Assembly (NCBI RefSeq): GCF_016055185.1
Contig: NZ_JAECVR010000001.1
Coordinates: forward strand, 112,345-136,344
Length of the DNA stretch: 24,000 nt
DNA from: Paenactinomyces guangxiensis
GTDB taxonomy: Bacteria; Bacillota; Bacilli; Thermoactinomycetales; Thermoactinomycetaceae
Direction of reading: 5' to 3'
The notes beneath the pieces are model-generated. The model saw only the letters and a program-made list of their open reading frames with translations, was not told the origin of the DNA and ran no database searches. This document shows, one piece after another, positions 2,032-17,751 of the stretch (positions within the stretch are counted from its first letter, which is position 1; each line of letters begins with the position of its first letter). A program made the position numbers and the translations under genes.

Positions 2032-2054
2032 CCAAACGAAAGATAGGGCATCAG

Positions 2055-2107
2055 GAATAAAACCCGCATTCGGGTTGAGATTTAAACGCTCATCCCCATG
2101 CGGGTTT
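2055..2107 (-). terminator. Intrinsic terminator closing the yhf operon
   Basis: The minus RNA reads AACCCGCAU...AACCCGAAUGCGGGUUUUAUUCC. Either a 9-bp stem (2061-2069 with 2098-2106) or a local 6-bp stem (AACCCG/CGGGTT, 2061-2076) ends in the same U-run. It starts 8 nt after the yhfW stop at 2115. Confidence 0.6.
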
Positions 2108-2114
2108 TACGGAT

Positions 2115-3311
2115 CTAACGTTGTAAATAAATTTCTCGTAAAAAGCTGGTTCCCGATTCCGTCGGAGGCAATCCAAAAAGCTGGCTCAACGTGGCTCCGA
2201 TATCGGCCATGGTTGTCCGAGTTCCGATTGGGCCTGGTTTTACTCCGGGACCTGTGACCAGAATAGGGGTGTATTCACGCGTGTGGCGGGAGTGGCCGAT
2301 GGTGGGATCATTCCCGTGATCTGCGGTGATGATCAGCAAATCATCCCCCTGTAACCGGCGCAGAAAACGGCCAAGCCACTCGTCCACTTGCTGTAACAGG
2401 GAAGCATACCACTCGGGATTTTCCTGATGCCCGGCTAAATCTGTTTCCTGAACAGTAACTAAAAAGGCGGCATCCCCTTTTTCAGTCGTGTATAACTGTT
2501 CTAATGCTTCCAATACCTGCTTTGTTTCTACATGTGGTAGAGCAACTCCCTCTCCATAGAGTACATCAGCGGTCTTTCCAATCCGGTATACAGGTACTCC
2601 GCTTTGCTCGGCCAAATAGGGAAACTGCTGTTCAATCCGTACTCCGTACCCTAAATGGCGAACCTGGTATCCCTCTCCGTACACCTTTGCCCGCGGACTA
2701 TCCACCCCCCACTGACCGGGATGGTGTTCCCGCACGACAGAGAGGATCTGTTCGATTGATGTATAAGGTCCGCCCAGGGCAATCACCCGGCTCACATCGA
2801 CCGTTTCACGCACCCGGCTCGCAATTTTTAACGTATCCGCAAATGAAATCCGTGAAAGATCTGCCGTTACATTGATAATATTCCCTTTGTCGCTTTCAAT
2901 GTTGTCGGCCACCACGACGGCATCTTCCACCAGCAGAATGGGACGGTGATCCCAGGGAACGGTTACTTTGCAGCCCGCTTCTTGCAAGGCGGAGGCAATG
3001 GATTCCCCCACCTCCCTCATCAACCGGCGTACCGGTTTTAACGGGCGGCTTCCCATCAGTTCCTGATGGCCCATATATGTATCCGCACCAAAATGGGCCA
3101 AAGCAGCCCTTCCGAATGCGCCCCGCGCTAGTCCCGTCCCGTCGACAAGCTGATTTAAACCCAGATGGTACAGAGTGGGAAGCGTGAGACCCGTCACCTC
3201 GCGGATATGAAGATAGGTATGGGCATTTACATCCTGAGGCCTCTCTTCTTCACAATCTTCCATCGCTCCAATGCCGAAACTGTCCAATACCAACAAGATC
3301 GCTTTAGGCAT
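2115..3311 (-). CDS. yhfW: YhfW-like phosphopentomutase-family metalloenzyme (putative phosphomutase)
   Basis: The product is 398 aa from ATG 3311, with GGAGAGG 8 nt upstream overlapping the yhfX stop. The track extension to 3434 overlaps yhfX and is not used. Motifs are LVLDSFGIG, GADTYMGHQE and ITADHGNDPT...HTREYTPILV, as in DeoB and E. coli YhfW. Confidence 0.85.
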   Translation of the reverse strand: MPKAILLVLDSFGIGAMEDCEEERPQDVNAHTYLHIREVTGLTLPTLYHLGLNQLVDGTGLARGAFGRAALAHFGADTYMGHQELMGSRPLKPVRRLMREVGESIASALQEAGCKVTVPWDHRPILLVEDAVVVADNIESDKGNIINVTADLSRISFADTLKIASRVRETVDVSRVIALGGPYTSIEQILSVVREHHPGQWGVDSPRAKVYGEGYQVRHLGYGVRIEQQFPYLAEQSGVPVYRIGKTADVLYGEGVALPHVETKQVLEALEQLYTTEKGDAAFLVTVQETDLAGHQENPEWYASLLQQVDEWLGRFLRRLQGDDLLIITADHGNDPTIGHSRHTREYTPILVTGPGVKPGPIGTRTTMADIGATLSQLFGLPPTESGTSFLREIYLQR

Positions 3312-3315
3312 TTTT

Positions 3316-4473
3316 CTATCCTCTCCAGTAAAAGTGAACCACTTCAGGTTTCCCTTGCCGGATGCCGCAAACCAGGGCGACATGCGACCGGGTGACAAAT
3401 ATTTGCGTACGGAAGGAGAAAATGGCTGTATCACCGGGGTGAATCTGCTCTATCGCCGATAATGCACCATAATAGTCAATATACTCAGCAGCGAGCGGAG
3501 AAGCAGGCACTTTCCGGCTAAGGATATCCGAAGATTTGGAACCCACAAATGCACCTGTCATCCGGGAGCGTCCGTAAAAACCCCCGCCAATGACATATGT
3601 ATGTGCGTCATCTTGATGTGAAACTTCAGTCACATAAATGATCGCCGGTATTTCCGGCAGATCTTCCCGCACTGCATGAAGAGGGGTTGTACCTGTCAGC
3701 GCATGACCCGGTTCACCATGAGTGACTCCGGCAGCCTTCAGTTCGGGGATGGTCAAACAGCAGGTGCCCCCCGGGCCATTGATCTGTTCAACTTTCACCC
3801 CTGCACCCTCCAGAATCAGACGGGCCGCTTTCAAAGTCTCCAAATTGGCCGTAAATTGATATTGGTCTCTGCCAGGGTCCATCTGCAGAACGGGAAAAGA
3901 AGTGACACCGGCGATTTTAATGCCTCCCAGCCATAACAGTTCAGGAATCATTCCGGGCAATTCCTGCAACGAAAATCCGCCCTGCTGCCCCGGGTAAATC
4001 TCATCTCCCTTTTTGATCACACGGAGCAAAACAGGTTGCCTCAACCCCATCTTTTCAGCTTGCCGGGACAGCTGCCGGGCACGTTCCAGGCTAAACAGAG
4101 TCACCACTTCAGGTTTGAGACTTAAAACCTCGTTCCATTCATTTTTTCCCGGTTGCACAAGATGTCCGACATGACCGAGCTGCACTCCGGCCCGATGCAA
4201 TATACGCGCTTCATCCATATCCACCGCCACTGCCTGTGGAATCCCCTGTTGTGAAATCCACTGGCAAAGGGGAGGAACCCGCCCAAACTGTTTGCTGATA
4301 AAATAAAGAGTCAGTTGAGCCTCTCTGGCGGCTGCGGCCAGCTTTGTCGTATTTTCCAGCACAGCATCCACATCAATTAAGTACGTGTTGGGAGGAATCA
4401 CCCCCTCCTGGTGAAGCTGAACTCCGGCTTGAATCAACCCCGGGTTGCGCCGGGACATCATATCAAGAAACAT
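3316..4473 (-). CDS. yhfX: YhfX-like fold-type III PLP enzyme (alanine-racemase-N-like)
   Basis: The 385-aa product is collinear with E. coli YhfX as I recall it. Matching segments are MFLDMMSRRNPGLIQAG..., TKQFGR-like ISKQFGRVP, GHLVQPG, GVTHGEPGHALTGT and FRTQIFVTRSHVALV. AGGAGGGG lies 4 nt before the ATG. Confidence 0.85.
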   Translation of the reverse strand: MFLDMMSRRNPGLIQAGVQLHQEGVIPPNTYLIDVDAVLENTTKLAAAAREAQLTLYFISKQFGRVPPLCQWISQQGIPQAVAVDMDEARILHRAGVQLGHVGHLVQPGKNEWNEVLSLKPEVVTLFSLERARQLSRQAEKMGLRQPVLLRVIKKGDEIYPGQQGGFSLQELPGMIPELLWLGGIKIAGVTSFPVLQMDPGRDQYQFTANLETLKAARLILEGAGVKVEQINGPGGTCCLTIPELKAAGVTHGEPGHALTGTTPLHAVREDLPEIPAIIYVTEVSHQDDAHTYVIGGGFYGRSRMTGAFVGSKSSDILSRKVPASPLAAEYIDYYGALSAIEQIHPGDTAIFSFRTQIFVTRSHVALVCGIRQGKPEVVHFYWRG

Positions 4474-4497
4474 GAGACCCCTCCTGTAAGTCCCCGG

Positions 4498-5634
4498 CTA
4501 TTTTTGTTTCCCGGTCCGCTGTACCTTCTCAATGGCCTGCTGCAAAATGCGAATCACGGTGTCGGCTCCCGACTTCATCGGGTTTATTCTTAACCCGCAG
4601 TCGGCCAATTCCGGCCTTGCTTCCAAAAAACTGCCGGATACGCGGTAGATCATGGGCAAGATTTCATATCTTGACTCGGCTCCCACCGGATAGACTGCGG
4701 CTCCAAGCGATTCACTGGCAGCAATCACTTCTCCCGCTATCGGCTCTTCCAATTCAACATTTACATTTTTGGATTGTGCATTGGTAATATAAGCCAGTCG
4801 TATGCCAGGTACTTCTCCTTCGTTTAATCTCCGGCACAACTCTTCCACCTGTTCCCCCTGCACAGCCAGGGAGACCGGAGCGAAAACGATCGAGCGCAAC
4901 AATTCCATCGCTTCCCATCCCTGAACTTGCCCGCCCCCCGAATAATTGATCCGATGTACTCCCTCAATGGCTTCCTGATGTCCGACGATCACTCCGATCC
5001 CTTCGGGGCCCAGCAGTTTAAATCCGGAAAATGCAGAGTAGTCCGCCCCCGCCTGCACTCCTGTCCGTGCTACTTTTAGCGCACAATAATTATCATCCAC
5101 CACAATGATACAATCATGGCGTACAGTACGCACACAGCTGATGAGCCGGTCCAGCTGGTACGTATCCTGAGGTTGCTGCCTGGCATGTTGAATATAAAAG
5201 AGACGGCATTCCGGATGTTGTTCAACCACTTTTTCCACTTCTGCCAGATCATTATAATCAGTAAAGATCGGCTGTAGATGGAGCATACGAATGATTTCTT
5301 TTGTTGTGGTATAAACAGGGGCCTGGTGCATAAACAGGGATTCTCCCGGTGAAAGCAACCAGCTCAACAGCGAGCGAATCGCTCCTGTTCCCGCCCCGCG
5401 TACCAGTGCAGCCGCTTCTGCTCCAAAAAACTCGGCCAACACCTGCTCTACTTTCGCCGTTGCGCGCGGTCGTTGAAAGTCGGGGTGAAGGCCGACATCA
5501 CCCTGCTGGTACCACTCTTCGCCGGAAAAGTGGCGTGAAATCGTATCAACCAACTGAAACTGAAGCCTCTTCGCTTCTTCCACTGTTAACGTGGAGAGAA
5601 CCCCCCCGGCATACGGCAATGATTCCAGATTCAT
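4498..5634 (-). CDS. yhfS: YhfS-like fold-type I PLP-dependent enzyme (aminotransferase/lyase-like)
   Basis: The 378-aa product contains GAGTGAIRSLL, a DDNYCALKVAR segment and the putative PLP-lysine motif SGFKLLGPEGIG. These match E. coli YhfS (SCFKLFGPEGVG) from memory. Its ATG overlaps the php stop by 4 nt (ATGA). Confidence 0.8.
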   Translation of the reverse strand: MNLESLPYAGGVLSTLTVEEAKRLQFQLVDTISRHFSGEEWYQQGDVGLHPDFQRPRATAKVEQVLAEFFGAEAAALVRGAGTGAIRSLLSWLLSPGESLFMHQAPVYTTTKEIIRMLHLQPIFTDYNDLAEVEKVVEQHPECRLFYIQHARQQPQDTYQLDRLISCVRTVRHDCIIVVDDNYCALKVARTGVQAGADYSAFSGFKLLGPEGIGVIVGHQEAIEGVHRINYSGGGQVQGWEAMELLRSIVFAPVSLAVQGEQVEELCRRLNEGEVPGIRLAYITNAQSKNVNVELEEPIAGEVIAASESLGAAVYPVGAESRYEILPMIYRVSGSFLEARPELADCGLRINPMKSGADTVIRILQQAIEKVQRTGKQK

Positions 5635-6563
5635 GTCAAGCTCACTTCCTTTTGAGCAAAAGCACTGGCAGGATTATCAATCAGCATTTGCCTGATCTGT
5701 TCCGCGGTGAACCCGGCTTGATTCAACATGGGGACAAACTCACGCAAAACCACATCATAACCGGGGCCGCCATTGCTGAAAAAATGTGATTTCCGCGTCA
5801 AGTCGGCGGAGAGAAGAACTTGCCCGCCATATCCTCTCTCCCATAGATCCAGCAGCATGGCCACCCGTTCCCGGTCCGGGAGATAATTGTTTTTCCCAAT
5901 CGTATCAAAGGCCACATAAGCCCCCGCTTCCACAACCCCGAATACCGCCTGTCGATCCTGATTAAGATCCTGATGCCCGATGATTAACTGATCCATGGGC
6001 AGACCGATCCGGCTGAAAAGTTCGATTTGCTGTAATGCCATCGTCCCGAGAGTAGTGTGGGTAGTGACGGGCAGACCTGTCATCATCCCTGCCAATCCGG
6101 CTCCTTCAAGCAAACATTGTTCTCTGGCGGTTATTTCATTCAAACTGCTGCCCACTTCACCGATCACTCCCGGAAAAATCCCCGTCCCGTCGATTCCCTC
6201 CCGAATCTCTTTCACCATAAACTCAGCAAATTGCTCACGATCCCAGTCTTTGATCTCCTCCGGCAAGTAGGGATCTTTATAACAGCCGGTACTGGCGATG
6301 ATCTGTAAACCTGTTCGGAGACTTAACTCCCGCAGATAAAGGACATCTCTTCCCATTCCAACATTGGTTACTTCAATGATGGAACGTCCGCCCGCCCGGG
6401 CAAAGCGCTGCAATTCCAACACCATCGCTTTTCGGTCGTCCAATCGGGTATCCGGGTCTTGTTTCACATGAGACAAGTCAATACAGCAATGTTCATGAAC
6501 CGCACAAATTCCTAATTGGCTTGCTTCAATCGTGCCTGTTACTGTTTGAATCATGGCAACCAT
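5631..6563 (-). CDS. php: Phosphotriesterase-homology protein Php (amidohydrolase superfamily, binuclear metal)
   Basis: Predicted metal ligands are HEH in CAVHEHCCIDLS, Glu in VIGEVGSS, His in VTTHTT, His in IIGHQD and Asp in LLSADL. The tail DTIGKNNYLPDRERVAMLL...RKSHFFSNGGPGYD closely parallels E. coli Php. ATG 6554 (MIQTV...) has better RBS spacing (GAAGGA 8 nt upstream) than ATG 6563. Confidence 0.9.
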   Translation of the reverse strand: MVAMIQTVTGTIEASQLGICAVHEHCCIDLSHVKQDPDTRLDDRKAMVLELQRFARAGGRSIIEVTNVGMGRDVLYLRELSLRTGLQIIASTGCYKDPYLPEEIKDWDREQFAEFMVKEIREGIDGTGIFPGVIGEVGSSLNEITAREQCLLEGAGLAGMMTGLPVTTHTTLGTMALQQIELFSRIGLPMDQLIIGHQDLNQDRQAVFGVVEAGAYVAFDTIGKNNYLPDRERVAMLLDLWERGYGGQVLLSADLTRKSHFFSNGGPGYDVVLREFVPMLNQAGFTAEQIRQMLIDNPASAFAQKEVSLT

Positions 6564-6572
6564 CCTTCATTG

Positions 6573-7883
6573 CTATTTCATCAAGGGCGGTGACATTAGT
6601 CCTGAAGCCACTAACAAGTTAGCGATAATACCTGTGACAATCGCACCAATCGGCCCGATCGCCATACGCACCACGGGCCGTCCGGCCGCCTCGTTGAGTA
6701 CATAAAATCCCCCGATCAAGAAGTACCCCAACCCCGGTGCCATCATATTGGCCGCATTTGCCCCTCCGATCAGCAGTGCTACTTCAAGAAGACGGGTCAT
6801 TGCGGTACGAATGTTCTCACCGGCTTCCCGCACACCCGGGTAGCGGTCCAGAAAGCGGGATACACTGCTTAACAGAAAAACTTCAATAAAGATGATTACA
6901 CACCCGAGAATACCTGCCAGCCACGGGTTGGGCGCAAGCAAGCCAGCCACAAAAATAAAGGTAAATCCAACCGGGCTGTAGACTCCGGTAGCAATTGCCG
7001 TACTGGCGATGAGAGGGATAAATCCAACGGCTCGTGCTGCAGCCGCAAGCGCGGCATCGGTCCGGTTACCTTCAGACAACAACTGTAAGGAAATGGGGTC
7101 TCCCGCCAATACCAACAGGTTGGCCGCAGCGGCAATCACTCCCCCCATCATCATGAAGAAAACAACTTGTTTGCGAATCCGATTCACTCTTTCGCTGAAA
7201 ATCGCGGCCAGATCCACCGGGGAGCTTCCATCCGTTTCAGGCTTTTTCTGGCGTATCGCAAAAATGATAAGAAAGATCATGCCTGTGATCAGAGCAACCC
7301 CTTCTTGATTCAATGTGACGGTTGATTGCCCGAACGTTAACAATTTTTGCTCATTGCACCACACAGCCAGCTGTCGGGCCAGAGCAGAGACGGCAAAGGT
7401 AACAATCCCTTTCTTGATGCTGAATTGCAAAGCGACGGCAAGAGCGGGGAAAGCCATAAAACCGACCACAACAGGTGCCCCGACTTGCTCCAGCGGTTTC
7501 AGCACATCAACCGGCAACATTTTGAATATATTTACAATACTGTCTAAACCGGCGGACAAACCCGCTCCATAAATCCCTCCGACTACGGCTGCTCCCGCAT
7601 TTCCCCAGCGATTGGAAGGAAGCGATAAGCCGATCATATCAGTTCCCAATAAAATACTGTGGATTAACAAAATTTTTGCGGTGAGGGAAAAGGGAATCCC
7701 AAATCCGATCACTAACCCGAAGCTCATGGCAAAGGAGGTGAGTGCCAGAGTACGCCGGTCCATTCTCCCCTCAATATTTTCCGGCAGGATGGGGCGAAGA
7801 CCATCATTAAATACAGCGATATTCCGGTTAGCCAGAAGCGCAGCCATCGCTCCGACCAGTGTGGCGAGAATCAGTTCTGTCAT
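6573..7883 (-). CDS. yhfT: YhfT-like polytopic membrane protein (putative transporter)
   Basis: The 436-aa product is hydrophobic throughout, with about 11-12 predicted TM segments. The N-terminus LANRNIAVFNDGLRPILPENIEGRMDRR parallels E. coli YhfT (AVFHDGIRPILPQLIEGYMNRR). Its ATG shares one base with the yhfU stop (TGATG). Confidence 0.85.
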   Translation of the reverse strand: MTELILATLVGAMAALLANRNIAVFNDGLRPILPENIEGRMDRRTLALTSFAMSFGLVIGFGIPFSLTAKILLIHSILLGTDMIGLSLPSNRWGNAGAAVVGGIYGAGLSAGLDSIVNIFKMLPVDVLKPLEQVGAPVVVGFMAFPALAVALQFSIKKGIVTFAVSALARQLAVWCNEQKLLTFGQSTVTLNQEGVALITGMIFLIIFAIRQKKPETDGSSPVDLAAIFSERVNRIRKQVVFFMMMGGVIAAAANLLVLAGDPISLQLLSEGNRTDAALAAAARAVGFIPLIASTAIATGVYSPVGFTFIFVAGLLAPNPWLAGILGCVIIFIEVFLLSSVSRFLDRYPGVREAGENIRTAMTRLLEVALLIGGANAANMMAPGLGYFLIGGFYVLNEAAGRPVVRMAIGPIGAIVTGIIANLLVASGLMSPPLMK

Positions 7884-8260
7884 CAGCCCGCCACTCCTTT
7901 TTGAAACTCTTGAATGGCCCGCATGATCATGGACACGGCCATCTCTTTGTGATCAGCGGTAAAGCCGAATGCTTTCTTCCCTGCCTGTACAGCTTCCCTG
8001 ATTTTCTGTTCAGTTGGCTGTCTTCCCGGCATGGAAACCGTCTCACATTGAGACGCACCCAGGATCGCAATCGCCATCGCCAGGGCTCCCCCGCCGCCCG
8101 TATGACAGGCGCCCAGATAGTAATCCCCCGTCCCTGTTTTCAAAGCCAGCGCAGCTTCGAGATCGGAACGGATCTCTGTGATGACTCCTTCGGGACCGTA
8201 CTTTTGCACCAATGCCTCCACTTCTTTTTTGTCAACCTGTCCGCCGATGATTATTTTCAT
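7883..8260 (-). CDS. yhfU: YhfU-like DUF2620 protein
   Basis: In this 125-aa product, GDYYLGACHTGGGGALAMAIAILG matches the E. coli YhfU core DYYIGACNTGAGAALSIAIAVIG. Its ATG shares one base with the yhfY stop (TAATG). Confidence 0.85.
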   Translation of the reverse strand: MKIIIGGQVDKKEVEALVQKYGPEGVITEIRSDLEAALALKTGTGDYYLGACHTGGGGALAMAIAILGASQCETVSMPGRQPTEQKIREAVQAGKKAFGFTADHKEMAVSMIMRAIQEFQKGVAG

Positions 8261-8640
8261 TAAGCATCCCCGCTTTCATCCATGTCCTGAAGGATTGAAA
8301 CATAATGCAGACGTAAGTACTCCTTTTCAACATCCGGGATGGAGTCATTCCATGTTTGACTGAGCCAGTCAATCTCTTCCTCGGCTGCTTCCATGCAGGG
8401 AGAACATCTGAGTTCCGCCAGGGACTCAGCCGTTAATCCGGTTGTCAGTCCATCTTTTCGAGAAATGCGTGTGAGAGCGGTCGCTAAATGGGTCGCCAAC
8501 ATTTGAAGTTTTTCCAGGTTAAGGGTACGTGTGCTCTTATTTTGCAGCCGATCACACGCTGTAAGTGTCACCCGGGCCGCCTCTGCTGAAACAACCCCGC
8601 CATGCACCAAAATTTCCAGCCGTTGCTCAAGTTGTTGCAA
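8260..8640 (-). CDS. yhfY: YhfY-like stand-alone PRD-domain protein
   Basis: The 126-aa product is mostly helical. It carries the PRD-type histidine motif LATHLATALTRI. The start is TTG 8640, with GGGGGGA 7 nt upstream. It has no CAT RNA-binding, HTH or EII domain. Confidence 0.75.
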   Translation of the reverse strand: MQQLEQRLEILVHGGVVSAEAARVTLTACDRLQNKSTRTLNLEKLQMLATHLATALTRISRKDGLTTGLTAESLAELRCSPCMEAAEEEIDWLSQTWNDSIPDVEKEYLRLHYVSILQDMDESGDA

Positions 8641-8661
8641 ATATTCATCCCCCCATCGGCT

Positions 8662-9594
8662 TTAATATCTTGGATATGTCTCCCCTTGTTCTACCATTTG
8701 CTGGACACGGCGAACCTGAACAGGATCCAGTCTGTCGATAATCGGATAAAACTCTTCTGTTTTGTGCGCCGTAACAACTACCGCTTCACTCATTGCCAGA
8801 GAAGTCTCATAGGCTTGTCTGGACTGAAGCTTTCCTCTTCCCAACGGTAAGGAGAATTTCACTTCATCTTTATTCCAGACAGCGGCATCGATTTTACCCT
8901 CTTTCAGCATATCCAGCAGTTGCATATAGCTGATTTCCACCCATTGAACCCGCTTCTCTTTACACTCATATTCCGTTAATAACGCCTGGTCAGTGGAGGA
9001 AGGGTCGATTCCGACATACATACCGTCGCGAATGACGGTTTCCCGGGGATTAGAAAAGAATACCTCATGCCCCGATACATAAGAGCCGGACCCCAACCCT
9101 TTTACGAGTTGGAGTTCCTTCGTTTTTTGGACGGCCACTTCCCCGGCAAATCGCGAAACCACCGCAAAGTCGTAGCGGCCATGTCGGAGTGTCTCAATCC
9201 GATGAGCCGCACCCCTCATATAAGCCAGACTAAAAGGAATTCCCTGTGATTCAAACGATTCCATCAATCCGGTCGCAAGCCCTTCATATTTTCGCGAATA
9301 GGGAAGCGGCATCACTCCCACCAACCGGCCCAGCCCGGCGACTTCCCACAGGGCGGCTTCATCTTTTTGGATTAGAAAAGTTCCCATGTGACCACGGGTT
9401 TCCAAACAAACTGCCTTCATTTCTTCCAATAATTTTAATGCTCCCTGGACCGTCCCCCTTCCAGTCGACAATTGCTTTACAAAGTCGTCAATCCTCGGGA
9501 TTCGTTCCCCTGCTTCCAGACTTAGCAGACGACGGGCAATTTTCATCGCTGCATAACCATTCTTCGTATAAAAAAGTTTACTGGTATCACTCAT
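8662..9594 (-). CDS. yhfZ: YhfZ-like transcriptional regulator (N-terminal winged-HTH plus periplasmic-binding-like C-domain)
   Basis: The 310-aa product has an N-terminal RIPRIDDFVKQLSTGRGTVQGALKLLEEMKAV segment that looks like a GntR-type HTH. The long C-terminal alpha/beta domain resembles YhfZ. It is the first gene after the predicted promoter. Confidence 0.75.
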   Translation of the reverse strand: MSDTSKLFYTKNGYAAMKIARRLLSLEAGERIPRIDDFVKQLSTGRGTVQGALKLLEEMKAVCLETRGHMGTFLIQKDEAALWEVAGLGRLVGVMPLPYSRKYEGLATGLMESFESQGIPFSLAYMRGAAHRIETLRHGRYDFAVVSRFAGEVAVQKTKELQLVKGLGSGSYVSGHEVFFSNPRETVIRDGMYVGIDPSSTDQALLTEYECKEKRVQWVEISYMQLLDMLKEGKIDAAVWNKDEVKFSLPLGRGKLQSRQAYETSLAMSEAVVVTAHKTEEFYPIIDRLDPVQVRRVQQMVEQGETYPRY

Positions 9595-9609
9595 TAGAAA
9601 TCACCAATA

Positions 9610-9623
9610 TACAGAATTCTGTA
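9610..9623. promoter_or_regulatory. Perfect 14-bp palindrome TACAGAATTCTGTA, candidate operator of the yhf operon
   Basis: The palindrome is read directly from the sequence. It lies between the predicted -10 (9634-9639) and the yhfZ start codon (9594), so it overlaps the expected transcription start and early leader. Confidence 0.5.
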
Positions 9624-9633
9624 CTCTAAAACC

Positions 9634-9662
9634 ATTTTAATATTTATATATAACTATTTCAA
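9634..9662 (-). promoter_or_regulatory. Sigma-A-type promoter of the yhf operon
   Basis: On the minus strand the -35 is TTGAAA (9662-9657), followed by a 17-nt spacer and the -10 TAAAAT (9639-9634). Confidence 0.55.
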
Positions 9663-9680
9663 TTGAGAATTAACGAAATA

Positions 9681-9696
9681 TTTATGCGCGCATAAA
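9681..9696. promoter_or_regulatory. Perfect 16-bp palindrome TTTATGCGCGCATAAA upstream of the yhf promoter
   Basis: The palindrome is read directly from the sequence. Its centre lies about 29 bp upstream of the centre of the -35 element, so it is a possible activator site. It partly overlaps the U-run of the msrA terminator. Confidence 0.35.
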
Positions 9697-9720
9697 AAAC
9701 GCCGACGATCCGGGTCGGCG
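9693..9720 (-). terminator. Intrinsic terminator of msrA
   Basis: The minus RNA reads CGCCGAC-CCGGAUC-GUCGGCG followed by UUUUUUAUG. It starts 11 nt after the msrA stop. Confidence 0.8.
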
Positions 9721-9730
9721 AGTACTGCAT

Positions 9731-10201
9731 TTAAATATGGCAGGAATCAATTCCCCGCTTTTGCAAATAACGCTGGTGATATTCCTCAGCACGGTAAAAA
9801 GAAGCAGCCGGTGTAATTTCCGTTACAATTGGATTTTTCCATTTGCCTGACTGATCCATTTTTTTCTTGGAGGCTTCCGCCAGTTCCTTCTGTTCCGGTG
9901 TGTGATAGAAGATCACGGAGCGATACTGGGTGCCTACATCCGGGCCCTGACGGTTGAGCGTGGTGGGATTGTGATTATTCCAAAATACATCCAGCAAATC
10001 CTCATACGAAACCTCTGCCGGGTCATACTCCACTTGAACCACTTCAGCGTGCCCTGTTTTGTCGGTACAAACATCTTCATAGGTAGGATTGACAGTTGTT
10101 CCGCCCATATATCCAACAGCCGTGTTTTTCACACCCGGTACTTTGCGAAAAGTTTCTTCCACTCCCCAGAAACATCCTGCTCCAAAAGTTGCTATAGCCA
10201 T
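9731..10201 (-). CDS. msrA: Peptide-methionine (S)-S-oxide reductase MsrA
   Basis: [18 protein letters not shown] carries the catalytic GCFWG motif, followed by GYMGG...[19 protein letters not shown]. The RBS AAAAAGGGGGG precedes ATG 10201. The track extension to 10228 is unlikely to be translated. Confidence 0.9.
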
Positions 10202-10226
10202 CTTGATCCCCCCTTTTTCTCTTCTC

Positions 10227-10254
10227 ATTATAATATGTCACGTCTGTCATGCAA
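10227..10254 (-). promoter_or_regulatory. Sigma-A-type promoter of msrA
   Basis: On the minus strand the -35 is TTGCAT (10254-10249), followed by a 16-nt spacer and the -10 TATAAT (10232-10227). Confidence 0.55.
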
Positions 10255-10281
10255 AATGTAAGTACCCAACCGGAAAGCAAA

Positions 10282-10860
10282 TCAGAGGTTTTTCGCTTCC
10301 CTGCCGTCAAAAACAAGATGTAACTTGCCGGTCACCGGATTAATCGTCAATCCATGGACCATCAGATGTGATGGGAAAAGAGGGTGATTTCTGATCAGAT
10401 TTACACTTTCCATCACTCCGCTTTCTACATCCTGACATCCGTGTAACCAGTTCTCGATGTCGACACCACTGTGGCGCAAGTTCTCCATTCTCTCTTTTGA
10501 TATTCCCTTTTTCTCCAGCTCAGCAAGAACAGGTGCCGCCTGCAGTCCGATCATCCCGCAATCCAAATGTCCCACAACAAATACTTCCTCTGCCTTTAAA
10601 AGAGTAACAGCGACCAAAAGACTTCGCATGACACTTCCATATGGTTCACAAATAAGAGCACCCGCTGTTTTTATCACTTTGGCATCCCCGTTTTTGAAAT
10701 TCATCGCTCGTGGCAACAATTCTGTCAAACGGGTATCCATACATGTGACGATCACCATTTTTTTGCTGGGAAATTTGTCCGTCCTGTAGGGTTCATACGA
10801 TTGACTGCTTACAAATTCTTCATTAAATGACAAAATCTCATCGAGATTGCTTACCAACAT
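10282..10860 (-). CDS. Beta-class carbonic anhydrase (B. subtilis YtiB-like)
   Basis: Zinc ligand motifs are VTCMDTRL and VGHLDCGM. The protein is collinear with YtiB, for example MLVSNLDEILSFNEEF against MSLLNDILEFNKTF. The start at ATG 10860 has AAGGAG 9 nt upstream. The longest ORF starts at 10893. Confidence 0.85.
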   Translation of the reverse strand: MLVSNLDEILSFNEEFVSSQSYEPYRTDKFPSKKMVIVTCMDTRLTELLPRAMNFKNGDAKVIKTAGALICEPYGSVMRSLLVAVTLLKAEEVFVVGHLDCGMIGLQAAPVLAELEKKGISKERMENLRHSGVDIENWLHGCQDVESGVMESVNLIRNHPLFPSHLMVHGLTINPVTGKLHLVFDGREAKNL

Positions 10861-10926
10861 GCTCTCATGCTCCTTTGCATCAGATTTCATCACTTAGTAC
10901 AAGGTAGTAAAAGAGAAGCACTTTGT

Positions 10927-10955
10927 ATAATAAAATTTATCCCGATTGTTGTCCA
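10927..10955 (-). promoter_or_regulatory. Candidate sigma-A promoter of the carbonic anhydrase gene
   Basis: On the minus strand the -35 is TGGACA (10955-10950), followed by a 17-nt spacer and the -10 TATTAT (10932-10927). Confidence 0.4.
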
Positions 10956-11163
10956 GTTCTCAATATGAACAAAAGCAAGAGGAAGATTCTATCATACAAG
11001 ACTGCATGATTGAAACCTGAAGCTATACGCTTTCCCTCAATGGGGAAAAGGCTTTCTCATAAACAGTCAGTTCGTATGATATACTTATGAGAGAAACAAG
11101 GTGATGAGAGGATCGGTATAACTATCACCAAAAATAAACCCTGAAGGAGTTTGAGATTGCCCC

Positions 11164-11409
11164 ATGAATGCACGGTTGAAATATATACTCATGAACATTC
11201 TCGGTTGGACTTTCCTCATCCTCGGTATACTGGGCATGGTTTTTCCCGTATTGCAGGGGCTTCTCTTCACTATTATCGGGCTGTTTATATTATCCGACTA
11301 TTCTCCCTGGGCTAAGCGTTTACTCCAAAAACTAAGAAACCGCTATCCTAAAATGTCTGCAAAGTCGGATAGGTTTTTGAAGAAATTGAAGTGGAAATCA
11401 ACCTCCTAG
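11164..11409 (+). CDS. Small two-TM membrane protein (YbaN/DUF454-like or PGPGW-like N-terminus)
   Basis: In this 81-aa product, NILGWTFLILGILGMVFPVLQGLLFTIIGLFILS resembles the GW..LG.LG.V.PVLP pattern of YbaN-type proteins. The tail is basic. The RBS GAAGGAG lies 13 nt upstream, which is long spacing. Confidence 0.45.
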   Translation: MNARLKYILMNILGWTFLILGILGMVFPVLQGLLFTIIGLFILSDYSPWAKRLLQKLRNRYPKMSAKSDRFLKKLKWKSTS

Positions 11410-11434
11410 CCATTCTTGTTTTAACTTCCATACA

Positions 11435-11461
11435 GAAAAAACCTGCAGCTTTTTCTGCAGG
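11435..11461. terminator. Terminator between convergent genes (stronger on the minus strand)
   Basis: CCTGCAG (11442-11448) pairs with CTGCAGG (11455-11461). On the minus RNA the stem is followed by UUUUUUCUGU, and on the plus RNA by UAGUUUGG. Confidence 0.65.
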
Positions 11462-11484
11462 TAGTTTGGCTTACAAAAAACCGT

Positions 11485-12129
11485 TCATTTTTCCTTTACC
11501 CGGCAAACTCCGAGACCGTCACCGATCGTCAGTAATATTGATTCAAGCCGGGGATCTGTAGCAATTTGCCGGTTAAACTTGCGAATCGTTTGCGGGGAAG
11601 GCCCTTGATCCTCTTCATCAAAAATACGGCCGGATTGGAGCAGGTTATCGGCAGTAATAATAGCTCCCGGGTTCGCCAGTTCAATTGCCTTTTCCAGATA
11701 GTAGATATAGCTTGGTTTATCCGCATCGATAAAAAAGAAATCAAATTTCTCCCCTTGACGGATCAATTGTTCCAAACTTTCCCTTGCATTTCCAACCTGA
11801 TAGGTAACGAGACTGCTTAACCCTGCCTTCTCAATATTTTCCTTCGCAAAGTCAGCGTGTTTTTGGCTGATTTCCAATGAGACCACTTTTCCGGTTCGCG
11901 GTAAAGCCCGGGCCAGCCAAATCGTACTGTAACCCCCGAGAGCCCCGATCTCCAGGATCCGTTTTGCACCGGATATTTTAGCAAGCAGATATAAGGTTTT
12001 CCCTACTTCAGACGGGACAGAGATTTGCGGCATCTCCCTTTCTGCCAGGTCCCGCTGATATGGACCGAAGTACTTCGTCCTCCTGAACAAACAAAGAACG
12101 GACATATTCTTTTTCCAACATGCAGGCAC
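11485..12129 (-). CDS. Class I SAM-dependent O-methyltransferase (caffeoyl-CoA OMT / YrrM-like), N-terminus apparently frameshifted
   Basis: GAKRILEIGALGGYSTIWLARALP is the SAM-binding motif, and FDFFFIDADKPSY and PGAIITADN follow. The family-typical N-terminus MLEKEYVRSLFVQEDEVLRSIS is encoded in another frame, from ATG 12121 with GAGGG 7 nt upstream. It joins this frame near 12051-12058 (see the frameshift finding). Confidence 0.75.
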   Translation of the reverse strand: MPACWKKNMSVLCLFRRTKYFGPYQRDLAEREMPQISVPSEVGKTLYLLAKISGAKRILEIGALGGYSTIWLARALPRTGKVVSLEISQKHADFAKENIEKAGLSSLVTYQVGNARESLEQLIRQGEKFDFFFIDADKPSYIYYLEKAIELANPGAIITADNLLQSGRIFDEEDQGPSPQTIRKFNRQIATDPRLESILLTIGDGLGVCRVKEK

Positions 12130-12222
12130 CCTCTTCCACTCTTTTTGTATTCATTGTTGCTTCTGTATAAGATCTCCGATGAAATATCAATAGTTTCCAA
12201 TTTCCGAATAAAAGTCCTGATC

Positions 12223-12375
12223 CTATTTTATCTTATGCAGCACAGAAATACTCCTGTTATTCTCATCCCCCACAAAAATAAATAAATCTTCAATCAAACA
12301 GTCAAATGCCCGGGCCAGTTTATTTGCAAGAATCAGTGACCCCTTATATTCTCTGCCAGGCGGGCATGGAAGACT
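12223..12375 (-). pseudogene. Remnant of a small XRE-family HTH regulator (5'-truncated and frameshifted)
   Basis: The minus frame reads GREYKGSLILANKLARAFDCLIEDLFIFVGDENN...*. This matches the C-terminal half of about 70-aa XRE regulators (ERGxxxPSlxxlxKlAxaFxxxiEDLF). The adjacent frame reads VKSSMPAWQRI*, resembling the helix-3 segment vSKStISaWER. There is no start codon, and the tRNA terminator lies directly upstream. Confidence 0.4.
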
Positions 12376-12392
12376 TTACCATCTCTGAAAAT

Positions 12393-12424
12393 AAAAAAGA
12401 TACCACTACATAAGTAATGGTATC
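12393..12424 (-). terminator. Intrinsic terminator of the tRNA-Gly gene
   Basis: The minus RNA reads GAUACCA-uuacuuaugua-GUGGUAUC followed by UUUUUUAUUUUC. The core stem pairs GATACCA (12399-12405) with TGGTATC (12418-12424). Confidence 0.7.
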
Positions 12425-12433
12425 ATTTTCCGT

Positions 12434-12507
12434 TGGAGCGGATGACGGGAATCGAACCCGCATTACTAGCTTGGGAAGCTAGGGTTCTGCCATTGAACTA
12501 CATCCGC
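12434..12507 (-). tRNA. tRNA-Gly (anticodon CCC), CCA encoded
   Basis: The minus strand reads GCGGATG-TA-GTTC-AATGGCA-GAAC-C-CTAGC-TTCCCAA-GCTAG-TAAT-GCGGG-TTCGATT-CCCGT-CATCCGC-T-CCA. This is a full 74-nt cloverleaf. The anticodon loop is TT-CCC-AA and the discriminator is U73, as in bacterial tRNA-Gly. Confidence 0.9.
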
Positions 12508-12520
12508 AAAATTCTTTTTT

Positions 12521-12549
12521 ATTATAACATGCACACTGGATTACAGCAA
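12521..12549 (-). promoter_or_regulatory. Sigma-A promoter of tRNA-Gly with extended -10
   Basis: On the minus strand the -35 is TTGCTG (12549-12544), followed by a 17-nt spacer ending in TGt and the -10 TATAAT (12526-12521). The tRNA 5' end lies 14 nt downstream. Confidence 0.6.
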
Positions 12550-12588
12550 GAAGACTTCAAAAAAATATACCGGCAACTCTCTTTCCTT

Positions 12589-12619
12589 AAAAAGTCAAGG
12601 TTCCCTGCCGGGAACCCTG
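12589..12619 (-). terminator. Intrinsic terminator of the acidic-N-terminus membrane protein gene
   Basis: GGTTCCC (12599-12605) pairs with GGGAACC (12610-12616) around a 4-nt loop, with two further outer pairs. The minus RNA continues ACUUUUUAAGG. Confidence 0.6.
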
Positions 12620-12636
12620 ACCTGGTCCGGATGAAT

Positions 12637-13071
12637 TTAAAATAGGATCCTGAATGGTACGATTAACGTCATAATGATCAACGCCAGCACGCCAATTCCA
12701 ACTGCCCACCAGCCCAGTGAGCTTCCTCTGCGGGCACTGATCACCCCAATAATAATTCCCGCCGGTGCCAATATATAAGGCCAGAGGAAAAAGGCAAGCA
12801 CTGACAAAATAATTGCTGTGATTCCTAATCCTCTTCCGGCATCAGCGGTTTCTCTTCCATCCTCTGCCCGTCTGTCCTTTTTTTCCCGAAGAGCTTCAGG
12901 AGATGAAACAGCCATGTCCTCGGCAAACTCCTCATCTCGCTTGCCTGCATCCAGGGCGGCATTCAACTCCCCATCATCTTGCGGCGAAGCTGCTGCATCC
13001 ACTCGTGCTTCGTCCGTCTGTACAGCCTCCGGGGACTGTCTTCGCTCATCATTGCGTTTATCTTTCGCCAT
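12637..13071 (-). CDS. Hypothetical membrane protein with an acidic disordered N-terminus and two C-terminal TM helices (DUF4190-like)
   Basis: The start is MAKDKRNDERR... from ATG 13071, with a GGGGGG RBS. The N-terminal approximately 90 aa are rich in D, E, A and R. The C-terminus GLGITAIILSVLAFFLWPYILAPAGIIIGVISARRGSSLGWWAVGIGVLALIIMTLIV forms two hydrophobic helices. Confidence 0.6.
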   Translation of the reverse strand: MAKDKRNDERRQSPEAVQTDEARVDAAASPQDDGELNAALDAGKRDEEFAEDMAVSSPEALREKKDRRAEDGRETADAGRGLGITAIILSVLAFFLWPYILAPAGIIIGVISARRGSSLGWWAVGIGVLALIIMTLIVPFRILF

Positions 13072-13098
13072 ATTTTTCCCCCCAGTAAATCCGAACCT

Positions 13099-13113
13099 AC
13101 ACATAGTATGTGT
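13099..13113. promoter_or_regulatory. Palindrome ACACATA-G-TATGTGT in the promoter region of the 12637-13071 gene
   Basis: The arms are a perfect 7 bp each, 28 nt upstream of the start codon. Function is unknown. Confidence 0.25.
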
Positions 13114-13120
13114 GTTTCAC

Positions 13121-13162
13121 AAAAAAACATGAAAAATCCATCCTGACAGGATCAGGATGGAT
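13121..13162 (-). terminator. Intrinsic terminator of the OppA-like gene
   Basis: A perfect 11-bp stem pairs ATCCATCCTGA (13136-13146) with TCAGGATGGAT (13152-13162) around a 5-nt loop. The minus RNA continues UUUUCAUGUUUUUUU. Confidence 0.85.
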
Positions 13163-13176
13163 GATGTGCATTTCTT

Positions 13177-14778
13177 TTATTTTTTATCTGCCTGTGTGTA
13201 ATCGTTCTGGCCAACCGGGTGGCGTATAATTCCTGTTACACCGGGTTGTTCGGCCGCTGCCGTATTGTAAAAGTACAGCGGAAAGAGGGGCATTTCTTCA
13301 AACAGGATTTTTTCAGCTTCATGAAGAAACTTGTCGCGCTCCTCCTGATTGGAGCTTTGGGCCGCTTTTTGCAGATACTCGTCATATTTTTTGTTGCTCC
13401 AGTTGGTTCGGTTCATCGAATGGTCGGTTTGGAAGCTTTCCAGGTAATTATAGGTATCATTGTAATCCGCCAGAAAACTGGATGTGGTCATAATATAGTT
13501 TTTGCTGCGCTGGTCAGCAAAGTAAACCTTGTTTTCTTTGGCCTGGAGCTGAATTTCCACACCAAGGTGTTTACGATACATCTCCTGAACCGCTTCAGCA
13601 ATTTTTTTGTTTTTCTCGGTCGTATTACTGTACAGAAGTGTAACCGTTGGGAGTTTGCTCCATCCCTCTTCCTTCATTCCTTCTTCCAACAACTTTTTCG
13701 CCTCTGCAAACTGGCCGTCCTGGATGAGGTTGCCGCCTTTTTGGCGGAAGTTATTGGGGGCAGAAGGGGCTACATACGCGTATGCAGGTTGCTCTCCGCT
13801 TTGCACAATCTGTTCGACAATCAATTTCCGGTCGACAGCCAGAGCAAATGCTTTGCGGATTTTAACGTTCGTAAACGGTTCTTTTTTCACATTGAAGCGG
13901 AAGAAGGCTAATCCGTTTGATTCCCAGGTTTTTACTTCACCGCTTTTGATCATCTGTGCCAGAAGATCTCCGGGAATTGACTTTTTGGCAATAACATCCA
14001 GTTTTTTGGTTTTATACATTTGATATGCAGTGTTGCTGTCTGTCACAATGGAGAAGTGAATCCCGCTTAGTTTTACAACTTCCTTGTTATAATAATTTTC
14101 ATTCCTGGCAACTTTAATATGTCCATCGTGTTTCCATTCGGTCATTTTAAAAGCGCCGTTGCTGACATAACTTTTCGCTTCATTGTAAAGGGCGGGATTT
14201 TGTTCAGCCCCTTTTTTATAAACAGGGGAGTAAACCGAATAGGCGGTCAGCTGAAGGAAAGAAGGTGTCGGGCGCGTCAGTTTTACTTCCAGTGTATAAT
14301 CATCCAGCGCTTTCACACCGACTTGATCCGCACTGCCCTTCCCTGTGTTATATTCCTCGGCTCCTTTTATAAAGTACAGAAGAAATGCGGCTTCTGAAGC
14401 GGTTTTCGGATCCAGAACCCGTTTCCAGGCAAATTCAAAATCGTGGGCTGTCAGGTTTTCACCGTTAGACCATTTGGTCTTGTTAAGAGTAAATGTATAA
14501 GTGAGTCCGTCGGAGCTCGTTTTCACTTCCTTGGCAATCGCTTTCTGGGGCTGATGATTTTTATCGAGTCTCATCAAACCGACAAACAGATTATGGGTTA
14601 CATCCAGCGAATCTTCATCAAAAGCTTTCGCGGGATCAAGTGAGGTAGGTTCTCCCGTTAAATTAAGATTGAGAATTTTTTCAGTCTTCTCAGTTTGGTC
14701 CGCCCCCGTTGTACAGCCGGTTAAACCACTTACAATTGCAATGAGTAAGACAATGGATAAGATCCCAAACTTTTTCAA
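13177..14778 (-). CDS. ABC-transporter peptide-binding lipoprotein (family 5 SBP, OppA/DppA/MppA-like), orphan
   Basis: The 533-aa product has a signal peptide with the lipobox LTGC (MKKFGILSIVLLIAIVSGLTGC). Family 5 features such as NLNLTGEPTSLDPA and KWSNGE.LTAHDF are present. The start is TTG with AAGGGGG 7 nt upstream. No permease or ATPase genes are adjacent. Confidence 0.85.
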   Translation of the reverse strand: MKKFGILSIVLLIAIVSGLTGCTTGADQTEKTEKILNLNLTGEPTSLDPAKAFDEDSLDVTHNLFVGLMRLDKNHQPQKAIAKEVKTSSDGLTYTFTLNKTKWSNGENLTAHDFEFAWKRVLDPKTASEAAFLLYFIKGAEEYNTGKGSADQVGVKALDDYTLEVKLTRPTPSFLQLTAYSVYSPVYKKGAEQNPALYNEAKSYVSNGAFKMTEWKHDGHIKVARNENYYNKEVVKLSGIHFSIVTDSNTAYQMYKTKKLDVIAKKSIPGDLLAQMIKSGEVKTWESNGLAFFRFNVKKEPFTNVKIRKAFALAVDRKLIVEQIVQSGEQPAYAYVAPSAPNNFRQKGGNLIQDGQFAEAKKLLEEGMKEEGWSKLPTVTLLYSNTTEKNKKIAEAVQEMYRKHLGVEIQLQAKENKVYFADQRSKNYIMTTSSFLADYNDTYNYLESFQTDHSMNRTNWSNKKYDEYLQKAAQSSNQEERDKFLHEAEKILFEEMPLFPLYFYNTAAAEQPGVTGIIRHPVGQNDYTQADKK

Positions 14779-14873
14779 ATTAGTACCCCCTTATTTGTTT
14801 ATCTCAAACTTTTTTCGCTTATAATAAAGAGAAATCCTGCAAAATGAAAATGTTTTTATGGGTAGCGAATGAT

Positions 14874-16190: not shown

Positions 16191-16202
16191 GGGAGATCTC
16201 CC

Positions 16203-16583
16203 TTAAGATTTGGTATCTTTTGTAAGCTTTTGATCCAAATAACTATAAATGATTCCCACGATTTTACGATTCCAGCCAAAGTCAAACATTCTGCTGCGAA
16301 TCGCTGCATGAATATCGACAGCCAGGCGGATCGGTGTAATCTCATATATCGTAATCACAATATCATGTGTGAATCCGAGCGGATTTCTATACTCAAACAT
16401 CACTTCCCCGCGCTCTTTATCATAATGGACAAACTTAAAAGAAGGATGTTGTTTCGGCAATTGCAAAAGCTGATCACCCGCTTCGAGCGATCTCCCCCGG
16501 TAATATCGGCTACGCAGCCAGTCTTCGGGCGCACGGTCTCCGGTTTCGGTAATTCCGCTGAAAAAGCGTCGCATTCCTGACAT
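16203..16583 (-). CDS. Hypothetical cytosolic protein
   Basis: The product is 126 aa from ATG 16583, with AGAGGTG 5 nt upstream overlapping the gpsB stop. The track start at 16586 is a GTG. It has no TM segment and no motif I recognise. Confidence 0.55.
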   Translation of the reverse strand: MSGMRRFFSGITETGDRAPEDWLRSRYYRGRSLEAGDQLLQLPKQHPSFKFVHYDKERGEVMFEYRNPLGFTHDIVITIYEITPIRLAVDIHAAIRSRMFDFGWNRKIVGIIYSYLDQKLTKDTKS

Positions 16584-16593
16584 CACTTCACCT

Positions 16594-16872
16594 CTATCTC
16601 CGCATCATTTTTTCTAAACGATCAATACGGGCAAGAATTTCTCTAATAATTTCGTCATATTGGCCGGTTTGCTCCTGAACGCGATTATTTCGTCCGGTAT
16701 TTTGTTTCTTTGCCGCCCGAAGCTGTTCTTTTAAATATTCATTCTCCTGCAACACATCCTCATAACTTTTGATGACCAAATCCAAAAATTCATTTACTTC
16801 ATCAATATCATACCCTCTCATTACATGTTTAAAATCTTTATTAAAAATTTCCATTGGTGTTAATCGCTTCAT
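16594..16872 (-). CDS. gpsB: Cell-cycle protein GpsB (DivIVA-domain)
   Basis: In this 92-aa product, LTPMEIFNKDFKHVMRGYDIDEVNEFLDLVIKSYEDV is the DivIVA/GpsB N-terminal domain signature. A short C-terminal helix ILARIDRLEKMM follows. Confidence 0.85.
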   Translation of the reverse strand: MKRLTPMEIFNKDFKHVMRGYDIDEVNEFLDLVIKSYEDVLQENEYLKEQLRAAKKQNTGRNNRVQEQTGQYDEIIREILARIDRLEKMMRR

Positions 16873-16943
16873 GATGACTGCACTCCCTATTCAACTTTTC
16901 AATTCACTATTATATATGAATTTGCCCTTCTCTCAAACTAATG

Positions 16944-16983
16944 AAAAAAAGAAAACGCAGACCTTTTTTCAGTAGTCTGCGTT
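16944..16983 (-). terminator. Intrinsic terminator of the YlaJ-like gene
   Basis: A 9-bp stem pairs AACGCAGAC (16954-16962) with GTCTGCGTT (16975-16983). The minus RNA continues UUCUUUUUUUC. Confidence 0.8.
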
Positions 16984-16993
16984 CTATTTTGAT

Positions 16994-17744: not shown

Positions 17745-17751
17745 GTCTGAG

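Follow-up and report, generated by a model that had tools for sequence, protein, structure and literature searches.

We describe here an intact copy of the yhf gene cluster in Paenactinomyces guangxiensis (Bacillota; Thermoactinomycetaceae). It lies in a window of 24,000 nucleotides, the whole stretch of DNA that was analyzed (RefSeq assembly GCF_016055185.1, contig NZ_JAECVR010000001.1, positions 112,345 to 136,344 of the forward strand; coordinates below count from the first letter of the window). The block contains all eight Yhf families of the Escherichia coli type. With a probability of about one half, we read it as a catabolic operon, induced by its substrate, for a small sugar-type nutrient that bears an amine and is processed through an anionic, probably phosphorylated intermediate.

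The cluster is not new, and public databases already annotate each of its families. It is one of the better-known orphan operons, with solved structures for Php, YhfS, YhfX, and the C-terminal domain of YhfZ, and one further copy leaves its orphan status unchanged. New here are a conserved operator, a fold assignment for YhfU, a YhfT model without structural relatives, and a pattern of accessory genes at other loci. No substrate assignment for the Yhf proteins was found in the literature (full text, with few subscription journals), PDB names, or RefSeq names. The E. coli K-12 proteins carry RefSeq names with "putative" or "uncharacterized," and PDB entries 4J8L, 4KBX, and 2OZZ are titled uncharacterized or hypothetical. 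The orphan status asserted in the original prediction, which was made from the window alone, is borne out as far as the literature, PDB, and RefSeq were searched.

Gene content and operon layout

The genes and terminators of the block are as follows, in the direction of transcription.

9692 to 9720, minus strand: msrA intrinsic terminator; stem at 9700 to 9720 of 7 bp with 6 GC pairs, followed by TTTTTT
8662 to 9594, minus strand: yhfZ, GntR-like helix-turn-helix domain (HTH_41) plus YhfZ_C ligand-binding domain
8260 to 8640, minus strand: yhfY, stand-alone PRD protein with a TTG start
7883 to 8260, minus strand: yhfU, DUF2620 protein; modeled fold RpiB/LacAB-like, Cys52-x-Thr54-Gly loop invariant
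6573 to 7883, minus strand: yhfT, polytopic membrane protein, presumed permease
5631 to 6563, minus strand: php, phosphotriesterase-family binuclear metal hydrolase
4498 to 5634, minus strand: yhfS, fold-type I pyridoxal phosphate (PLP) enzyme, Lys206
3316 to 4473, minus strand: yhfX, fold-type III (alanine-racemase-like) PLP enzyme, Lys61
2115 to 3311, minus strand: yhfW, phosphopentomutase-like metalloenzyme of the alkaline-phosphatase superfamily
2050 to 2110, minus strand: operon-end intrinsic terminator; hairpin at 2057 to 2110 (-27.5 kcal/mol, z = -4.0), followed by UUUUAUU

As originally claimed, all eight open reading frames (ORFs) are present on the minus strand. Each family occurs once, in a contiguous and co-directional block flanked by msrA upstream and a zf-CHY gene. 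BLASTP against E. coli K-12 paired each product with its namesake only, which upholds the eight family identities. The YhfT sequence is identical to the one in P. guangxiensis assembly GCA_013867725.1, and the public gene calls agree with those given here. The yhfW start was placed at ATG 3311 (398 aa) according to the PRK12383 match and the public gene call; the mechanical ORF reaches 3434. The php start is probably 6554 (307 aa, as in the public call) instead of 6563, in which case the gap between yhfT and php is 18 nt.

The predicted junctions were recovered exactly: genes overlap by 1 nt at two of them and by 4 nt (ATGA) at a third, and the other gaps measure 4 to 24 nt. Both hairpins that had been proposed to bracket the block, that of msrA and the operon's own, were confirmed. 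Inside the block, 14 terminator-like matches were found, a number that does not clearly exceed the shuffled expectation (8.7 ± 3.2), and none of them is convincing. Because of the overlaps and short gaps, one promoter-like site with an operator, terminators at the ends only, and a conserved gene block, the layout appears to be that of a single, tightly coupled operon with a terminator at each end.

Putative promoter and operator, and regulators

Two further features lie upstream of yhfZ.

9634 to 9662, minus strand: sigma-70-like promoter TTGAAA-17-TAAAAT, at 10 of 12 positions the closest to consensus in the region (a consensus match only)
9605 to 9626, minus strand: candidate YhfZ operator GAGTACAGAATTCTGTATATTG, directly upstream of the yhfZ ribosome-binding site

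The perfect palindrome TACAGAATTCTGTA at 9610 to 9623 is placed between the promoter-like site and the yhfZ ribosome-binding site, and it occurs once in the window (0.08 expected by chance). Loci for comparison came from a scan of one genome per species (185,579 species), which gave about 425 loci with YhfT relatives; gene order, neighbors, and the operator were compared in the 80 best of these, all from Bacillota, with operator counts taken over 77 or 74 loci. The exact motif TACA-N6-TGTA is present within -200 to +40 of yhfZ in 43 of 77 loci (background, 0.07 per kb); when up to one mismatch is allowed, it is present in 65 of 74 (background, 0.12 per 240 bp). It usually stands directly 3' of the -10 box, with the consensus aATATACAgaatatTGTATATTG across loci; it was not found upstream of E. 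coli yhfZ. By its phylogenetic footprint the conserved motif is an operator, most simply one through which YhfZ would repress its own operon, and it could be used for reporter or inducer screens.

YhfZ itself matches the equivalog NF041241 (369.8 bits; cutoff, 260) together with PF14502 and PF14503, and its C-terminal domain matches PDB 2OZZ, which is solved but has no functional name. From these matches and the motif upstream, YhfZ is likely the repressor of the operon. YhfY matches the PRD family PF00874 at 27.2 bits (cutoff, 23); across 70 homologues, conservation is 100% for H51 and R58 and 97% for H112. Because the PRD hallmarks His51, Arg58, and His112 are kept, control through YhfY by the phosphotransferase system (PTS) is plausible. 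No riboswitch or other known RNA was found in the operon leader. Directly after the T-run of the msrA terminator, some 100 bp upstream of yhfZ, there is a separate 16-bp perfect palindrome, TTTATGCGCGCATAAA (9681 to 9696), which may be a second regulatory site or a product of chance.

Enzymes

All the yhf enzymes look catalytically intact, because the catalytic residues of Php, YhfS, YhfX, and YhfW are conserved. Php matches PF02126 at 246 bits (cutoff, 22.4) and conserves all six metal ligands (H23, H25, E136, H169, H197, and D254). Its closest solved structures are those of E. coli PHP (4LEF and 1BF6; 2e-70), followed by 3PNZ (3e-48). It is the only one of the eight window proteins to match E. 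coli Php and sits in the equivalent cluster; its score against the E. coli Php equivalog NF007373 is 281.3 bits, below the cutoff of 486.

We take 3PNZ to be the phospho-sugar lactonase Lmo2620, the closest functionally characterized relative of Php, in which K242, K244, R275, and Y278 presumably bind the substrate phosphate. In the alignment, Lys242 and Arg275 of Lmo2620 correspond to the conserved Lys224 and Arg257 of Php, and Lys244 and Tyr278 are replaced by Asn and His, respectively. Lactonases of the Lmo2620/Bh0225 type and Php have equivalent binuclear metal ligands. Against the phospho-furanose lactonase model NF045706, Php scores 101.7 bits, far under the cutoff of 630.

YhfS contains the YhfS-like_C domain PF22475 (148 bits), matches PDB 4J8L ("uncharacterized protein YhfS") at 3e-107, and has invariant K206 and D180; its nearest relatives outside YhfS are methionine gamma-lyase, cystathionine gamma-synthase, and cysteine desulfurase. 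YhfX matches YhfX-like_C (PF21279) and Ala_racemase_N (PF01168) above their cutoffs and PDB 4KBX ("uncharacterized protein YhfX") at 1e-82, with K61 invariant. YhfW matches PRK12383/NF009049 at 491.9 bits (cutoff, 254) and Bacillus cereus phosphopentomutase structures at 1e-35, with conserved metal ligands and the Thr nucleophile, Thr78. Its scores against the DeoB equivalogs TIGR01696 and NF003766 (141.5 versus 341.2 bits and 168.5 versus 256 bits, respectively) are under the cutoffs.

YhfU and YhfT

Structures of YhfU and YhfT were predicted from homologue alignments (with AlphaFold2 for YhfU) and compared with the PDB by Foldseek. YhfU belongs to DUF2620 (PF10941, 151 bits) and had been listed as a transport candidate. 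Its confident model, with a predicted local distance difference test (pLDDT) score of 93.6, matches RpiB/LacAB isomerases instead: RpiB or LacAB proteins account for all of the 22 best PDB matches and for 25 of the first 26 (template modeling scores of 0.6 to 0.7; best E value, 1e-4). YhfU Cys52 is invariant and lies in a glycine-rich loop. A weak profile comparison (hhalign; 27 columns; E value, 0.042) aligns Cys52-His-Thr54-Gly-Gly of YhfU to the catalytic Cys66-Gly-Thr68-Gly of E. coli RpiB. With the Pfam family LacAB_rpiB (PF02502), E. coli YhfU scores 13.6 bits (cutoff, 24.7) over the Cys-x-Thr stretch, and the window YhfU gave no match.

The modeled fold of YhfU matches that of RpiB/LacAB, and its Cys-x-Thr-Gly loop aligns to the position of the RpiB catalytic Cys66/Thr68; the two differ in other respects. 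YhfU has no significant sequence match to the PF02502 family. When the N-terminal loops are compared by eye, YhfU has Gly-Gln where RpiB has Asp9/His10, and neither the His99/Asn100 nor the arginine phosphate ligands of RpiB are evident. Unlike RpiB and LacAB as described, YhfU is always paired with a membrane protein. YhfU therefore seems, from its model, to have a sugar-phosphate-isomerase-like fold yet not to be classable in the RpiB family. This fold assignment would shift YhfU from "transport accessory" to "sugar-phosphate-isomerase-like."

YhfT matches PF10797 at 580 bits. Its family is small and compact, forming 305 clusters at 50% identity among 1.84 billion representatives. The YhfT model is all-helical with a moderate pLDDT of 78.8, and its comparison with the PDB returned zero structural matches. 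The genes yhfU and yhfT remain adjacent in every lineage examined despite rearrangement of the other genes, and here they overlap by 1 nt.

Two PTS assignments were considered and rejected. For YhfU as a IIB component, no IIB protein was among the top 50 structural matches of the model, and its cysteine presumably comes after strand 3, the RpiB arrangement, and not after strand 1, where IIB proteins of the lactose or galactitol type have theirs. For YhfT as a IIC component, the model matched no solved IIC or other transporter. The combination expected of a PTS permease, a IIB fold in YhfU with a IIC fold in YhfT, was accordingly not found.

A rival reading is that YhfT, YhfU, and YhfY form an unrecognized PTS-like group translocator, in which the YhfU cysteine would relay a phosphoryl group to the substrate during import by YhfT. 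No kinase gene was noted among the clustered neighbors of the 80 loci, and such a translocator would explain phosphate-handling enzymes without a kinase. The constant pairing of yhfU and yhfT, the invariant Cys52 in its glycine-rich loop, and the retention of His51 and His112 in YhfY are also in its favor. We nevertheless consider it quite doubtful, given the isomerase-like rather than IIB-like model of YhfU, the lack of a match between YhfT and any solved IIC protein or other transporter, and the fact that no IIA gene was noted in the neighborhoods.

Distribution and gene order

E. coli K-12 carries the cluster as b3376 to b3383. Its families match those of the window one to one, and both clusters are tightly packed, run in a single direction, and begin with the regulator. 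BLASTP identities to the window proteins are 35% for YhfZ, 31% for YhfY, 33% for YhfU, 38% for YhfT, 41% for Php, 50% for YhfS, 40% for YhfX, and 43% for YhfW, over alignments near full length except for YhfY (74 residues). The clusters differ in gene order, which is Z-Y-X-W-php-U-T-S in E. coli and Z-Y-U-T-php-S-X-W in the window. They also differ in YhfY, where Asn replaces the second PRD histidine in E. coli (His112 in the window protein), and in location: the E. coli cluster adjoins the frl (fructoselysine) genes, whereas that of the window sits between msrA and the zf-CHY gene. Of 5426 complete E. coli genomes, 5076 contain the cluster, which is thus near-core in this species.

The 80 best loci belong to Bacillales, Thermoactinomycetaceae, Paenibacillus, and Clostridia. 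The neighborhood survey found the exact window order in 52 of the 80, the commonest order in Bacillota. Since all of these loci with the identical eight-gene order are from Bacillota, the present copy is typical, not unusual, for a spore-forming Gram-positive bacterium.

Three loci deserve separate mention. Bacillus sp. T33-2 (L016, about 9256 to 20473) has two yhfY-yhfU-yhfT modules, one standing alone and the other in a Z-Y-U-T-php-S-X-W-NagB cluster; its second YhfT is 34% identical to that of the window, which suggests paralogous uptake modules with different specificities. A 485-kb plasmid of Bacillus thuringiensis (L084, 8184 to 18711) carries a reduced Y-U-T-php-S-X cluster without yhfZ and yhfW, followed by two ATP-grasp genes. 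A locus labeled Roseburia sp. 1XD42-34 (L067, Clostridia) has the Bacillales-type order, 66% YhfT identity, and no clostridial amidase insertion; either the assembly is mislabeled or contaminated, or the cluster was transferred.

Accessory genes at other loci

All ORFs of the 80 loci were clustered, and representatives were scanned. The following families recur.

22 loci plus Cetobacterium: short amidase-signature enzyme with intact Lys/cis-Ser/Ser motifs, inside or beside the operon
15 loci: secreted PBP4B-like serine hydrolase with a beta-lactamase fold
9 loci: NagB, in or adjoining the cluster, a true glucosamine-6-phosphate deaminase equivalog (330 bits; cutoff, 236.9)
5 loci: HisJ-family phosphatase, all among the six loci without yhfW and in none with yhfW
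3 loci: pyrimidine-type nucleoside hydrolase, RihA/UriH-like

The five loci that have the HisJ-family PHP phosphatase and lack yhfW are L003, L004, L061, L063, and L065. The secreted PBP4B-like hydrolase is found in the first four of these but not in L065, and L003 and L004 also have the RihA/UriH-like nucleoside hydrolase.

Together with YhfW, YhfU, and the Lmo2620-like Php, the accessory genes point to an amine-bearing, sugar-type compound that would be handled as a phosphate ester. In some lineages an amide bond would be removed, and in some glucosamine-6-phosphate would be a product. The accessory genes narrow the substrate search to amine-bearing phospho-sugars or cell-wall-derived compounds.

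Some of the same families admit an amino-acid- or peptide-type substrate, which could be a fragment of peptidoglycan or spore cortex, a conjugate of a D-amino acid, or a molecule resembling an (acyl-)homoserine lactone. Where it is present, the amidase would remove an acyl or peptide group, Php would open a lactone, lactam, or ester, YhfX would racemize, and YhfS would carry out a beta- or gamma-elimination. This agrees with the lyase and desulfurase relatives of YhfS, the alanine-racemase N-terminal fold of YhfX, and the frequency of the amidase-signature enzyme and the PBP4B-like hydrolase. Many phosphotriesterase (PTE)-family enzymes are lactonases, and E. coli PBP4B (yfeW) lies in the murQP operon for recycling of N-acetylmuramic acid. 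Such a substrate would, however, leave no role for YhfW, its apparent HisJ-type replacement, the RpiB-fold YhfU, or the association with NagB, and PTS/PRD control is typical of carbohydrates. We regard it as possible but fairly improbable.

Proposed function

We infer the catabolic direction, the order of steps, the phosphorylation of the intermediate, and the substrate class of the following scheme. YhfZ, bound to the TACA-N6-TGTA operator at the promoter and transcript start, would repress the operon until an effector binds, and YhfY, with its phosphorylatable histidines intact, would add PTS control. YhfT would import the compound, and YhfU, the RpiB-fold cysteine protein whose gene always adjoins yhfT and is translationally coupled to it here, may act on its sugar or sugar-phosphate moiety at or just after uptake. 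Php, with an intact metal centre and a partly retained anion site, would then open a lactone or ester. Inversion and removal of the amino group would fall to the two PLP enzymes, YhfX with its racemase/epimerase-type fold and YhfS with its lyase/aminotransferase-type fold, and YhfW would shift a phosphate so that the carbon skeleton could enter central sugar-phosphate metabolism.

The phosphate theme is proposed because YhfW is phosphopentomutase-like, because Php is Lmo2620-like with Lys224 and Arg257, and because a HisJ-type phosphatase is present in five of the six loci without yhfW. The amine or amino-sugar theme is proposed because of the two PLP enzymes, NagB, the amidase-signature enzyme, and the PBP4B-like hydrolase. 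The earlier suggestion of an amine-bearing sugar, sugar-phosphate, or lactone substrate fits this accessory-gene and family evidence.

Several points weigh against the scheme. Php keeps two of the four presumed phosphate ligands of Lmo2620, and YhfS, being closest to lyases of Cys/Met metabolism, fits an amino-acid substrate equally well. The likeness of YhfU to RpiB is limited to the fold and one loop, with marginal sequence support and other RpiB catalytic residues not evident. The window operon itself has no amidase, NagB, or PBP4B-like gene, which makes their hints indirect. The proposed pathway does not account for the source of the phosphate, and no experiment or paper linking these proteins to a substrate was found in the full-text literature, which covered few subscription journals.

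Alternatively, the cluster might serve to build or modify a product, such as an amino-sugar derivative. Sugar-modification pathways likewise employ PLP aminotransferase-like enzymes, mutases, and isomerases, and ATP-grasp genes come after the cluster on the B. thuringiensis megaplasmid. This is very improbable in view of the catabolic-type architecture, in which a PRD protein and a dedicated permease accompany a GntR-type regulator that has an operator at its own promoter, and of the co-occurrence with the catabolic NagB; glycosyltransferases, nucleotidyltransferases, and exporters were not noted among the recurrent neighbor families.

A bolder extension of the catabolic reading would make YhfT, YhfU, and YhfY a new class of uptake machine, in which a permease that lacks structural relatives in the PDB would be obligately coupled to the RpiB-fold cysteine protein under the control of the stand-alone PRD protein. 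It would work as either a PTS-like group translocator or a transport-coupled isomerase, feeding an undescribed pathway for an amino sugar derived from the cell wall, the spore cortex, or glycation. We hold this to be a long shot. If it were true, YhfT/YhfU as a new transport mechanism would be of wider interest, and the amino-sugar pathway would give Php, an orphan enzyme of 1998, a substrate.

Composition and mobility

The GC content of the block is 51.3%, against 45.1% in the rest of the window, and that of third codon positions (GC3) is 52.0%, against 47.8% (p ~0.005 across genes). The original prediction of a more GC-rich block was right in that the excess is real; it is, however, small, lies mostly in the first codon positions (GC1), and is equaled by other genes in the window. 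At the block borders, neither a tRNA nor an integrase, transposase, or other mobile-element gene was found, and flanking direct repeats were likewise absent. None of the flanking genes is common to any of the 80 other loci, including three from other Thermoactinomycetaceae. The closest YhfT relatives (70 to 72% identity) include Melghirimyces and Planifilum, which we take to belong to the same family as the window organism. Plasmid carriage was seen in 6 of 72,556 records, all six typed non-mobilizable; three of the six are mislabeled E. coli chromosomes, and the rest are megaplasmids of Cetobacterium, B. thuringiensis, and Vibrio halioticoli.

The presence of the cluster in a Gram-positive host had been taken to argue for an ancient, mobile unit. 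That argument is not supported: the gene order is typical of Bacillota, these plasmid records contain the cluster only very rarely and in no mobilizable replicon, and no mobile element borders it here. The cluster has clearly moved and been reshuffled over long evolutionary times. Recent acquisition as a genomic island in this genome is unlikely. It would fit the higher GC and GC3, the flanking genes that differ from those of all 80 other loci, the patchy distribution (about 425 loci in 185,579 species genomes), and the gene order shuffled between phyla; against it stand the clean borders, the concentration of the GC difference in GC1 with other window genes equal in GC, the nearest YhfT relatives in what is presumably the same family, and the scarcity and non-mobilizable type of the plasmid records.

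Other features of the window

A thiamine pyrophosphate riboswitch (RF00059, 74.8 bits) at 23761 to 23864 on the minus strand lies upstream of a thiamine operon comprising TMP-TENI (23097 to 23765), a DAO-family flavin adenine dinucleotide oxidoreductase, possibly ThiO (21968 to 23113), and ThiG (20992 to 21759). Two SEDS (FtsW/RodA/SpoVE) paralogues, at 18560 to 19711 (minus strand) and 19802 to 20944 (plus strand), are divergent and about 90 bp apart. A lone tRNA-Gly(CCC) at 12434 to 12507 (minus strand) adjoins a 155-aa ORF without a Pfam match at 12637 to 13104 (minus strand).

Comparison with known systems

The Salmonella dga (D-glucosaminate) operon and the frl/fra operons for Amadori compounds combine a regulator, dedicated uptake, and deamination of a phosphorylated amino-sugar derivative, as is proposed here for yhf. 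DgaE is a fold-type I PLP ammonia-lyase that acts on an amino-sugar-acid phosphate, and the fra locus includes an amidase-type step. The dga and frl/fra systems use canonical PTS or kinase steps and enzymes of families other than those of yhf; to our knowledge, none of them has a PTE-family hydrolase, a YhfX-type enzyme, a YhfW-type mutase, or a YhfT/YhfU pair.

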